Shown piece by piece: positions 49,022 through 55,401 of a stretch of DNA of 64,000 nucleotides; position 1 is the first letter of the stretch, and each line of letters starts with the position of its first letter. The stretch covers positions 7,442 through 71,441 of the forward strand of contig JBBUJK010000029.1 of NCBI GenBank assembly GCA_038054875.1, written 5' to 3'. The position numbers and the translations under genes were made by a program. The notes below the pieces were generated by a model, which was given only the letters and a program-made list of their open reading frames with translations, had not been told where the DNA came from and did not search any database. This DNA comes from Patescibacteria group bacterium. Lineage in GTDB: Bacteria; Patescibacteriota; Patescibacteriia; 2-12-FULL-57-11.

Positions 49022-49702
49022 ATGGAGACCATCATCCTGCGCGTGCCTTACTATCTGGATTTCGCGGCTCCGCTCGCCATCCTTCTCTGGTTGGCGGCGA
49101 TTGTCCTCGCGCTGTCGCTCCACGAGTTCTGCCACGCGCTCGCGGCAACGTTGCTCGGAGACCAGACGGCGCGTTTGGCCGGGCGACTTTCGCTGAATCC
49201 GCTGGTCCACGTCGACCCGCTCGGCATGGTCATGGCCGTCGTTGCCGGTTTTGGGTGGGCACGACCAGTCCCGTTCAATCCCTACAATCTTCGGGTCCAG
49301 CAGTGGGGACCGACTCTCGTTGCCGTGGCCGGACCGGTCTCGAACTTCCTTCAAGCTACCGTTGCAGGCATCGCCATTCGGTTGGCCACAGGTGCCGGGG
49401 TTCCGGAATCGAACCTGCTGATGATATTCCTCGGCTACTACTTCCTGATCAACGTCGGCCTGTTCTTCTTCAACCTCCTGCCCATTCCGCCGCTCGACGG
49501 CTCCAAGTTCCTGCTCGACCTGCTCGCCGGCCCCCAGTACGCCCGAGCCCGGTTTTTCCTTGAAACCAAGGGTCCGCTCATTCTCCTCTTGATCCTTTCC
49601 CTCCAGTATTTGATTGGAATTTCGGTCTTCGGGATCCTCTTCTCCCTGGTCTACCGGTACATCTTTTTCCCGCTATTCGGGATCGTGGTGCAGGTGCTAT
49701 AA
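49022..49702 (+). CDS. site-2 protease family (peptidase M50) membrane metalloprotease
   Basis: HExxH (LHEFCHAL) in TM1 and NLLPIPPLDG in a later TM segment. Confidence 0.75.
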   Translation: METIILRVPYYLDFAAPLAILLWLAAIVLALSLHEFCHALAATLLGDQTARLAGRLSLNPLVHVDPLGMVMAVVAGFGWARPVPFNPYNLRVQQWGPTLVAVAGPVSNFLQATVAGIAIRLATGAGVPESNLLMIFLGYYFLINVGLFFFNLLPIPPLDGSKFLLDLLAGPQYARARFFLETKGPLILLLILSLQYLIGISVFGILFSLVYRYIFFPLFGIVVQVL

Positions 49703-49719
49703 CGTCATATATATCTTGA

Positions 49720-50064
49720 ATGCGTATGAGCTCAGAAATGCCCTCAGGTGAATATCTGATTCCCGTTGAACAGCGTCCGTACGGCGATCGCCTGGCCTCC
49801 ATCAATAAACAGCTTGAACAACGGGTGCGGGCGCATGATTTTGAGATCATAAACCTGTCGTACCGGCAGGAACTCGACAATCTTCTGCTTGCATTACAAA
49901 CGGGAAAGGAATGGGCGACAGATCGTCTGTCCGCGCTCGAGACGGCGGTGCAGGAATACGTCTCTGCAAATAACGCCCACAGAATGGATGCGTTCACGAC
50001 GCTGAAGGAGCAAATCACCGGCATTCGTACGGAGTTTCAAGGACGGGGGAAAAAGGCGGCGTAA
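49720..50064 (+). CDS. hypothetical protein
   Basis: 114-aa ORF at the start of a lower-GC region. No recognised domain. Confidence 0.3.
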   Translation: MRMSSEMPSGEYLIPVEQRPYGDRLASINKQLEQRVRAHDFEIINLSYRQELDNLLLALQTGKEWATDRLSALETAVQEYVSANNAHRMDAFTTLKEQITGIRTEFQGRGKKAA

Positions 50065-50151
50065 GAGATGAGTGATCGTGTAGGTGTTGTAGGACTTGAC
50101 AGGGAGATGCGGTCGTGAAGGGGAGGAATTGTTCGTGTACGATAACTGCAT

Positions 50152-50598
50152 ATGGATACAGAAACACGTGACTTTTTGGAGAAGAAATTCGATGGAATCG
50201 ACAAAAAGTTCGAGGTGCTCGACAACAAATTCGACAGAATCGACCAACGGTTTGATGAAACTGACAAAAAGTTCGATCAAAAGATCGATGCTCTGGCCAA
50301 TGCCGTTGCAGAGGGTTTTTCGGCTGTTGATAAGCGGTTCGACCGTCTTGAAAACCGCGTTGGAGCTGTCGAAAACCGCGTCGGCGGCGTCGAAGGCGGT
50401 CTGGCTCGACTGGAGATCAACATGCTCACTATGCATTTCGACAAAAAAGAAACCCAGGAGCGCCTCGCCCGGCTTGAAGCGCATCATGAGCGTACTTTTA
50501 AACGTGTCGACGAGTTTTTGACAGTCGTAAATCGCCACGAGTCCGAGATCGCCGCACTCCGCGGTGGGCAACAGCGGATCGAGGAACGGCTCCCATAA
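50152..50598 (+). CDS. hypothetical coiled-coil protein with KKFD/RFD heptad-like repeats
   Basis: Repetitive FDxIDKKFExLDNKFDRIDQRFDETDKKFDQKID pattern. GC about 42%. Confidence 0.4.
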   Translation: MDTETRDFLEKKFDGIDKKFEVLDNKFDRIDQRFDETDKKFDQKIDALANAVAEGFSAVDKRFDRLENRVGAVENRVGGVEGGLARLEINMLTMHFDKKETQERLARLEAHHERTFKRVDEFLTVVNRHESEIAALRGGQQRIEERLP

Positions 50599-50602
50599 GT
50601 GT

Positions 50603-50635
50603 CATCCTGAACGGCAGTGAAGGATCCTACCTGTT
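50603..50635. repeat. ATCCTGA...GAAGGAT hairpin repeat, copy 4
   Basis: TCATCCTGAACGGCAGTGAAGGATCCTAC matches TTATCCTGAGCGGCAGTCGAAGGATGG at 20485. Confidence 0.55.
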
Positions 50636-50735
50636 CATGCACGGGCTCTGACAAGACCCGGAGAGATTCTTCCCCCGCCATCGGCGGGGGCTTTTTATTG
50701 ATCGAAAGGTCATTTGTGCGTAAAGTAGCCGCATT

Positions 50736-54675: not shown

Positions 54676-54724
54676 GTCTTGAAAAATCAGTTTTGCACCT
54701 TTGAAATCTTATAATTCAAGACCT
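54676..54724. repeat. large inverted repeat GGTCTTGAA-N31-TTCAAGACC
   Basis: Perfect 9-bp arms around an AT-rich loop at the 3' end of the AT-rich gene. Confidence 0.5.
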
Positions 54725-54866
54725 GACAGTGTGCCGTCATTGTTTATCGTCCAGGATGTGGTATTCTCGCATGGATATGCATAGCCGCTTCAGGAGAATA
54801 TAACCCGCGAGAACGTCTTCATTGGGCAGGCGGTCTTTGCGGGTTTTTGATTTGTTCATTTCTCCT

Positions 54867-54943
54867 GCCCTCGTTGGCTAACGGATAGGCCAACCCTCCT
54901 CTAAAGGGTCAGTGTCTGGGTTCAAATCCCGGCGAGGGCACCA
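54867..54943 (+). tRNA. tRNA-Arg (anticodon TCT, predicted)
   Basis: GCCCTCG...ACCCT[CCTCTAA]AGGGT...CTGGG[TTCAAAT]CCCGG-CGAGGGC-A-CCA. Position 33 is C and the variable loop has 6 nt, so this is slightly atypical. Confidence 0.6.
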
Positions 54944-54944
54944 T

Positions 54945-55020
54945 GCCCGCGTAGGCTAACTGGATAAACTGCCGCGCTCCTAAGGCGGAGTTCGAGGTTC
55001 GAATCCTCGCGCGGGCACCA
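54945..55020 (+). tRNA. tRNA-Arg (anticodon CCT, predicted)
   Basis: GCCCGCG...CCGCG[CTCCTAA]GGCGG-AGTT-CGAGG[TTCGAAT]CCTCG-CGCGGGC-A-CCA. The D-arm is weakly paired. Confidence 0.6.
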
Positions 55021-55021
55021 T

Positions 55022-55096
55022 GCTCCCATCGTCTAACGGTTAGGATGTCTGTCTTATATGCAGAAGGTCAGGGTTCGATTCCCTGTGGGAGTACCA
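55022..55096 (+). tRNA. tRNA-Ile (anticodon TAT, predicted; decodes AUA)
   Basis: GCTCCCA-TC-GTCT..GGAT-G-TCTGT[CTTATAT]GCAGA-AGGT-CAGGG[TTCGATT]CCCTG-TGGGAGT-A-CCA. Confidence 0.55.
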
Positions 55097-55401
55097 TGCA
55101 CGTCGTAGAGTCCGGTCTTGAAGGATCACTGATAAGCACTTGAAGGATGCTTCGCTCCGCTCAGCATGACATGCGGGGCAGGCGGACACGCGCGGCGTGA
55201 ACATTTGCTCTGACCGGATACGCCAGATGTGAGCTCGCTGTGTTTTATTGAGGTTTTTATACTCCGAGACTGCCCAGATCCCCCTGTTGACCGCATTTTC
55301 GGCTCATGATACGTTAGGCCGGCATTCGGATGACTCTCTGGGGTTAAGGCTGACCTTCGGGGGAAAATCCACGGTTCGATCAGTCTTTTTTATTACCTGC
55401 G

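Follow-up and report, generated by a model that had tools for sequence, protein, structure and literature searches.

Do two neighbouring defence genes in a bacterial chromosome form one immune system, or two that share an operon? The question is raised by a locus in a 64,000-nt stretch of DNA (hereafter the window) from a Patescibacteria group bacterium (assembly GCA_038054875.1, contig JBBUJK010000029.1, positions 7,442 to 71,441). Here, between an M50 peptidase gene and rpsL, a gene for a restriction–modification (RM) enzyme of the MmeI family is followed by an AT-rich gene for a 376-amino-acid (aa) HEPN protein and by three transfer RNA (tRNA) genes. The DNA is of groundwater origin: the matching contig comes from Hainich groundwater, and an identical protein is deposited as MEK7073414.1 (Patescibacteria group bacterium, metagenome-assembled genome). 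The reading we favour, with confidence somewhat better than even, is an independent RM enzyme and a stand-alone, abortive-infection-type HEPN ribonuclease (RNase) sharing an operon.

The 929-aa open reading frame (ORF) is, on its sequence, a complete, full-length MmeI-type enzyme. Pfam finds each of the five MmeI domains in it (MmeI_N, _hel, _Mtase, _TRD, and _C; E 1e-20 to 6e-91), far over their cut-offs; the PADLOC model REase_MTase_IIG scores 1165 bits; and in phmmer, residues 1-912 give a full-length alignment with 5HR4, the sequence of the MmeI crystal structure, at 962 bits. The single-chain MmeI-family RM enzyme proposed in the earlier note is thereby borne out. The endonuclease motif D65-x9-E75-x-K77 in IDLFWPGKLLVEHK and the methyltransferase motif GNPPF are intact and align with the corresponding residues of MmeI; from established MmeI knowledge, we take D65, E75, K77 and NPPF to be the catalytic residues. 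Like 5HR4, the protein is a five-domain single chain (endonuclease, helical spacer, gamma-class N6-adenine methyltransferase, target recognition, and C-terminal domains), and the GRLESRYRYS stretch of the target recognition domain is conserved. Unlike 5HR4, which is another organism's enzyme, it is encoded in a Patescibacteria chromosome with a HEPN gene immediately downstream. No separate methyltransferase or specificity-subunit ORF was found among the flanking genes. MmeI enzymes are abundant in databases: more than 8000 proteins match at E 1e-100 or better, many of the closest being from Parcubacteria, Paceibacterota, and Uhrbacteria.

The second gene is less familiar. Its ORF (53545-54675) begins 19 nt past the MmeI stop codon, and the product has no match in Pfam, NCBIfam, PADLOC, or PHROGs. 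The start codon giving 376 aa is supported because residues 5-9, upstream of Met10, are conserved among homologues. The C-terminal domain is a four-helix up-and-down HEPN fold with a canonical Rx4H motif, R305-SSYL-H310. Both the HEPN-like motif read by the earlier note and the fold on which its proposal depended are therefore present. R305, S306, Y308, L309, H310, and G312 are invariant in 40/40 aligned homologues, which are 45-72% identical to the query. Pfam HEPN_Apea (PF18739) weakly matches 3 of these 40 (best E 0.0024) and does not match the window protein at E up to 1; a search of the family profile against PDB sequences found nothing. No ATPase domain is present in Pfam, NCBIfam, or the structural model. 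The N-terminal alpha/beta domain is a putative sensor or regulatory domain.

The family comprises 261 proteins in a 90%-clustered collection (264 representatives at 50% clustering), a handful of which are labelled “HEPN domain-containing” or “Apea-like HEPN” (JGI) at the source. It is patchily distributed over at least eight bacterial phyla, including Patescibacteria, Acidobacteriota, Omnitrophota, Actinomycetota, Nitrospira, Latescibacterota, and Proteobacteria. A subfamily of ~530 aa, mainly from Acidobacteriota, has an additional C-terminal gamma-glutamylcyclotransferase (GGCT)/AIG2 domain (proteins P0054, P0060, P0071, P0074, P0076-78, and P0093, among others); at one locus (L007 11089-11595), this domain is a separate gene downstream of the HEPN homologue. 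A literature search found no published role of GGCT/AIG2 in phage defence.

The two genes of the window probably form one transcription unit, because a strong terminator precedes the MmeI gene and a terminator scan found none between MmeI and the HEPN gene. Such an arrangement recalls PrrC and EcoprrI. In a PrrC-like guard, a latent HEPN RNase would be bound by MmeI and freed when a phage anti-restriction factor disables MmeI, the two proteins being one two-layer system. The same logic was put forward by Anantharaman et al. for RM-linked HEPN clades (PMC3710099), and the short, terminator-free gap fits it, as does the presence of RM genes near homologues in ~9 loci. Genomic neighbourhoods tell against it. 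About 34 homologous loci were compared, 28 from species-representative genomes and further contigs by exact-protein look-up (L-numbers denote loci). At no other locus does an MmeI gene stand directly upstream of the HEPN gene (tblastn, 28 loci); the sole MmeI-like gene lies 8 kb off, in L023. Nor do any of the three closest MmeI homologues (78, 72, and 70% identity) have a HEPN gene (0/3): downstream of them are a KAP nucleoside triphosphatase gene, a DUF5677 gene, or a small ORF with a NYN nuclease gene. A conserved MmeI–HEPN pair is thus rejected from both sides. All-against-all clustering of the neighbours found no partner common to more than three loci, and the upstream neighbours are structurally unrelated (prokaryotic Argonaute (pAgo), Dsr1, PifA, HepT-MNT, a methylase only, a helix-turn-helix (HTH) protein), which argues against a specific interface. 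With neighbours this diverse, a specific interaction of the PrrC kind between the HEPN protein and MmeI is unlikely. The GC content of the two genes (39% against 56%) implies separate origins. The guard is therefore judged quite improbable, and the suggestion of the earlier note that the HEPN gene is a partner of MmeI is not upheld. No paper linking HEPN with MmeI was found in the literature.

At the three closest MmeI homologues, in Patescibacteria-like contigs (L094 3457-9382; L095 105-4086; L096 6001-9885), the enzyme appears as a single insertion among housekeeping genes. The adjoining DUF5677 and NYN genes of L095 and L096 are on the opposite strand, so that the overall pattern is MmeI plus a variable neighbour.

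In at least 14 loci, the HEPN homologue lies ≤31 nt 3' of a same-strand gene, and this gene or the locus around it is in most cases a known defence component. RM genes adjoin it in ~9 of the ~34 loci, and the association with RM genes elsewhere that the earlier note had called for is thus found. They include an EcoRI-like methylase (L002), an AlwI RM system with DUF6119 (L004), a BsaWI RM system between two methylases (L005), HsdR (L017), a type I RM system with a Schlafen gene (L021), and a Type ISP RM system with SIR2-APAZ (L009). Short-pAgo systems are represented by TIR-APAZ with short pAgo (SPARTA; L007) and SIR2-APAZ with short pAgo (L023). Other defence neighbours are DISARM-like SNF2 with a DUF1156 methylase (L014), Dsr1 (L031), PifA (L033), and an XRE-type HTH protein (L030). 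Also close by are HipA, a caspase-like peptidase, and SIR2 (L091); IS3 and AbiE (L093); serine recombinases (L006, L092). The GC content of the family gene is below that of its own locus in 26/28 loci (p = 8e-6). Since the neighbours vary, the closest MmeI homologues lack a HEPN gene, and the GC content is deviant, the family is best described as a mobile defence-island resident without a fixed partner.

At three Acidobacteriota loci, the HEPN homologue, GGCT-fused or GGCT-followed, is directly 3' of a short-pAgo system, either TIR-APAZ and pAgo (SPARTA-like) or SIR2-APAZ with or without pAgo (SPARSA-like) (L007 6960-11595, L023 5930-11299, L009 5924-11596). The HEPN(-GGCT) gene is possibly the third gene of SPARTA- or SPARSA-like operons. 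In two Patescibacteria genomes, PDC-S39/DUF4209 homologues adjoin the HEPN gene, once upstream and once downstream (L008 8160-9971, L020 11032-12885); this is the sole neighbour recurring in Patescibacteria.

Two further alternatives concern the HEPN protein itself. It might be an addiction toxin: the toxic half of a toxin–antitoxin-like module that stabilizes the islet and does not sense phage, the antitoxin being its own N-terminal domain or an unrecognised small RNA or peptide. Its homologues are frameshifted in L017, L018, L026, and L027, as would be expected if the gene is toxic. Neighbour clustering, however, shows neither a small ORF nor an MNT partner that is conserved beside the gene across loci, and the single HepT-MNT pair, in L018, is a separate module; this alternative is held to be very unlikely. 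Alternatively, it could be a non-catalytic or housekeeping protein of HEPN fold, engaged in nucleotide binding or RNA processing, whose adjacency to MmeI is accidental. The strict invariance of the catalytic R and H, the patchy distribution resembling horizontal gene transfer, the deviant GC content, and the defence genes in the great majority of neighbourhoods all speak against this, and it is considered extremely unlikely.

Truncated or split HEPN copies occur in Acidobacteriaceae as tblastn matches in two pieces (L017 10001-10873, L018 10951-11064, L026, and L027 22-719). They suggest recurrent pseudogenization, as expected of a toxic gene.

The protein differs from the known HEPN systems closest to it. 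PrrC and RloC, at type I RM loci, likewise combine a HEPN Rx4-6H RNase gene with an RM operon and embody the idea of a suicidal second line (PMC3710099). Unlike them, the 376-aa protein has no ABC-ATPase, its neighbour is type IIL and not type I, its N-terminal domain is unrelated, and the HEPN family shows no conserved linkage to one cognate RM system. ApeA also joins non-catalytic N-terminal part(s) and a HEPN domain at the C-terminus in one chain; it has ~580 aa, is mostly helical, and forms decameric rings of three-domain subunits (bioRxiv 10.64898/2026.01.26.701840). The window protein differs in its length and in its alpha/beta N-terminal domain, and the N-terminal and Mid domains of ApeA (~330 aa, mostly helical) have no counterpart in it, so that the relation of the family to ApeA is distant at best. 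Minimal HEPN proteins (4nqf, AbiV, HepT) are single domains of 130-150 aa with 5-10% sequence identity to it. HepT, moreover, requires an MNT antitoxin, and the HEPN gene of the window has no MNT gene beside it.

How did these genes come to lie beside rpsL? In the window, the genes 3' of the tRNAs are rpsL, rpsG, and fusA. In all three nearest relatives with long contigs (L036, L041, and L042; 3/3), the M50 gene is followed directly by rpsL-rpsG-fusA, with M50–rpsL spacers of 88, 336, and 92 nt, and neither a tRNA nor any of the island genes is present at that junction. A sigma-70-type rpsL promoter (TTGAC-17-TAnnnT with upstream TG) is common to the window and these three relatives. Because M50 abuts rpsL in them and the promoter is conserved, the segment from 49703 to ~55286, tRNAs included, is a lineage-specific insertion. 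It contains two small ORFs, the MmeI and HEPN genes, the three tRNA genes, and a hairpin resembling a repetitive extragenic palindrome (REP).

The composition agrees. The window background has 61.4% GC (mean of 1131-nt windows, standard deviation 2.7), and the drop from ~49.7 kb noted earlier is real: the 53545-54675 gene has 39.1% GC, ~8 standard deviations under the mean, and the lowest equal-sized window outside the insert has 55.1%. The MmeI gene has 55.6% GC (equal-length windows elsewhere bottom out at 57.7%), the two small ORFs at 49720-50598 have 51-53%, and a low-GC tract (43.5%) extends from the HEPN gene as far as the first tRNA. The segment is a lineage-specific, compositionally foreign, horizontally acquired islet, and the absence of the segment from the three relatives supports the lateral acquisition that had been proposed. 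The islet is also a mosaic: at 39% and 56% GC, 17 points apart, the HEPN and MmeI genes probably arrived separately.

The sequence features listed in the earlier note are all present. The edges differ from those first drawn. The inverted repeat ATCCT...AGGAT at 50603 exists, but it is internal to the inserted segment and is a degenerate copy of a dispersed hairpin, not an upstream boundary. The tRNA array does not terminate the island either; it lies inside the lineage-specific segment, which runs on to ~55286, before the rpsL promoter. Local alignments among four regions (left edge, middle, post-HEPN, and post-tRNA) gave no significant att-like direct repeats flanking the segment (best match 15 nt, p ~0.01-0.08 uncorrected), and edges marked by repeats were rejected. 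None of the ORFs in the segment is a recombinase or integrase. A phage origin was likewise set aside, since no family member occurs in IMG/VR viral contigs, PHROGs gave no match to the family, and the tRNA array resembles phage only as generic single tRNAs.

The order M50-rpsL-rpsG-fusA is kept across distant Patescibacteria, and in L036 and L042 the rpsL promoter begins 3-4 nt past the M50 stop codon. An imperfect direct repeat of the same marginal significance (p ~0.01-0.08, uncorrected; 54663-54689 and 55102-55128, core GGTCTTGAA..ATCA) brackets the 439-bp tRNA block; its first copy is just past the HEPN stop codon and its second just past the last tRNA.

The three tRNA genes after the low-GC genes, for AGA, AGG, and AUA, are confirmed by ARAGORN and Rfam, all passing the Rfam tRNA threshold of 29 bits; the spacers between them are 1 nt. 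In the background, these codons are nearly absent (AGA 0.8, AGG 1.2, ATA 0.9 per 1000 codons; zero in many genes), whereas the HEPN gene has 15.9, 10.6, and 8.0 and the MmeI gene 5.4, 1.1, and 6.5, respectively. AGA, AGG, and AUA are 6-20 times commoner in islet genes than in the background, and the adjacent trio decodes exactly these codons. In most bacteria, AUA is read by a lysidine-modified CAU tRNA made by TilS. The presence of a tRNA-Ile gene with the anticodon UAU suggests that AUA is read without TilS, whether in this Patescibacteria genome or in the donor.

Did the tRNAs come with the genes? Co-mobilization would mean that the Arg-UCU/Arg-CCU/Ile-UAU array arrived with the AT-rich cargo, like phage tRNA clusters, so that a GC-rich, tRNA-poor host can translate the islet; a further use could be to restore tRNAs lost to an anticodon nuclease. 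In its favour, the trio belongs to the lineage-specific segment, the junction lacks tRNAs in relatives, the anticodons match the three enriched codons, the spacing is tight, and the low-GC tract reaches the first tRNA. There is a general resemblance to the rare-codon tRNA clusters of phages and genomic islands, of which that of phage T4 is an example: compact sets for A/U-rich codons that are rare in the host, beside AT-rich foreign genes. Here, in contrast, there are no phage genes, and the tRNAs may be the host's own, the defence genes having inserted beside them. The host itself uses these codons (33 in 11,311) and needs such tRNAs anyway; no comparable array was found at other HEPN or MmeI loci or in the phage collection, where the similarity is to generic single tRNAs. 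An encoded CCA was considered as a marker of foreign tRNAs and proved uninformative, because all tRNAs of the window encode CCA; nothing therefore marks the trio as foreign. Ordinary tRNA genes are found close to several HEPN loci of Patescibacteria, a pattern that fits insertion hot spots beside tRNAs instead. On balance, co-mobilization is a tentative proposal, less likely true than false.

Patescibacteria HEPN islets are often 1-3 kb from ordinary tRNA or transfer-messenger RNA genes (L002 7734-8669, L008 3382-7630, L030 5189-6204, L033 4401-5080, L020 9059-9150). This proximity is consistent with tRNA-adjacent insertion hot spots.

The favoured reading, an independent RM enzyme beside a stand-alone HEPN RNase, can be put as a working model. 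A mosaic defence islet (49703-~55286) would have entered the M50–rpsL junction and would provide two independent immune functions. Enzymes of the MmeI family place a single-strand N6-methyladenine modification and cleave ~20/18 nt from their site. The window enzyme would accordingly methylate one strand of its own recognition site and cut unmodified incoming DNA about two helical turns away. The HEPN domain, with its Rx4H motif, is most likely a metal-independent RNase, working as a dimer with a composite active site. The N-terminal alpha/beta domain probably holds the protein inactive until an infection-related cue appears; once activated, the protein would cleave cellular RNA (tRNA or mRNA), and the infection would be aborted. 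PrrC, ApeA, and DARNA operate in this manner (PMC3710099; bioRxiv 10.64898/2026.01.26.701840; 10.64898/2026.02.22.705581), the last two being single-gene HEPN defence systems that act as tRNA anticodon nucleases. In this model, the HEPN protein would be a portable stand-alone effector able to land downstream of any defence gene, not an MmeI subunit, and the tRNA trio would help translate islet genes rich in codons that the host nearly leaves unused.

A broader version treats the whole family (~260 clusters) as a “rider”: a self-contained HEPN suicide RNase, plugged in without a promoter as a generic fail-safe directly behind mechanistically unrelated immune systems, among them type I, II, IIL, or ISP RM systems, SPARTA/SPARSA, Dsr1, or PifA, its N-terminal domain sensing an infection signal common to all of them. 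It would be GGCT-fused or GGCT-adjacent in Acidobacteriota, and in the reduced Patescibacteria genome studied here it would travel with the tRNA trio, which supplies tRNAs or, if the effector is an anticodon nuclease, buffers them. In this full form, the proposal is rather unlikely.

Several points weigh against the favoured reading. The defence role of the family would follow from genomic context and fold, no PADLOC, Pfam, NCBIfam, or PHROGs model covering it. No solved structure significantly matches the N-terminal domain, which gives no hint of a trigger. Some homologues lie among housekeeping genes (his genes in L016, mur/PBP genes in L022). Background genes, too, use AGA, AGG, and AUA, and the trio may be the host's only, essential copies, unrelated to the islet. 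The synteny comparison relies on distant relatives (M50 peptidases 43-58% identical), too remote for ordering or dating the insertions.

The linkage of HEPN genes to RM systems has been on record since 2013, when at least 16 such clades were reported (PMC3710099), and the locus does not overturn current understanding. What is new is an unannotated HEPN family with a novel N-terminal domain and GGCT-fused variants, its promiscuous placement behind defence systems, and the correspondence between codons and tRNAs. The catalogue of candidate anti-phage effectors gains one family; its placement downstream of diverse defence systems and its GGCT fusions offer concrete candidates for testing. Patescibacteria, with their tiny genomes, keep a layered defence, DNA restriction and what is probably an abortive RNase, at a core ribosomal-protein junction. 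The tRNA trio and the islet codons provide a small, testable example of the expression of AT-rich foreign genes in a GC-rich host. The features of the locus are collected in Table 1.

Table 1. Features of the islet at the M50–rpsL junction, in window coordinates
Feature	Position	Strand	Basis or remark
Lineage-specific inserted segment	49703..55286	.	~5.6 kb, 51% GC; from M50 peptidase stop codon to conserved rpsL promoter
114-aa ORF, part of insert	49720..50064	+	53% GC; ORF list
148-aa coiled-coil ORF	50152..50598	+	21-nt (heptad) periodic repeat at 50188-50276
Degenerate REP-like hairpin copy (ATCCTGA...GAAGGAT)	50601..50626	+	Sequence read
Intrinsic terminator	50672..50700	+	8 G-C pairs and T-run; top-ranked terminator-like site; separates coiled-coil ORFs from MmeI–HEPN unit
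MmeI-family type IIL/IIG RM enzyme, 929 aa	50736..53525	+	Pfam, PADLOC, phmmer
N-terminal alpha/beta domain of 376-aa protein (~residues 1-147)	53545..53985	+	Family-specific, no recognisable fold relative
C-terminal helical HEPN domain of 376-aa protein	53986..54675	+	R305-x4-H310, codons 54457-54474
Hairpin directly 3' of HEPN stop codon	54671..54727	+	Arms 54671-54694 / 54704-54727
tRNA-Arg(UCU), reads AGA	54867..54943	+	ARAGORN; Rfam tRNA 48 bits
tRNA-Arg(CCU), reads AGG	54945..55020	+	ARAGORN; Rfam tRNA 53.5 bits
tRNA-Ile(UAU), reads AUA	55022..55096	+	ARAGORN; Rfam tRNA 62.2 bits
REP-like hairpin GTCATGCTGAGCGGAGCGAAGCATCC	55145..55170	-	Copy of dispersed element
rpsL promoter, native right flank of insertion	55287..55315	+	TTGACC, 17 nt, TGA-TACGTT; spacer alignment of L036, L041, L042 with window 55097-55401

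Upstream of the terminator, the islet holds the two small ORFs. The 114-aa ORF has no significant match in Pfam, PADLOC, or PHROGs and no tblastn match in the relatives' loci. Four tandem 21-nt units in the 148-aa ORF (50188-50276) encode an FDxIDKKF-like heptad-repeat coiled coil; apart from generic coiled-coil matches, it shows a weak likeness to phage proteins of unknown function (phrog_5553, E 2.6e-9). The inverted repeat reported past the HEPN gene exists, but it is not unusually stable (-19.1 kcal/mol, z -1.7) and has no T-run, so that it is a weak terminator at best. The dispersed REP-like hairpin is an intergenic 26-nt element, GTCATNCTGAGCGGAGCGAAGNATCC. It occurs twice in perfect pattern, at 38377-38402(-) and 55145-55170(-), against a chance expectation of 0.01. 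Two of its copies, the degenerate one at 50601(+) and the one at 55145(-), enclose the MmeI–HEPN–tRNA block in inverted orientation.

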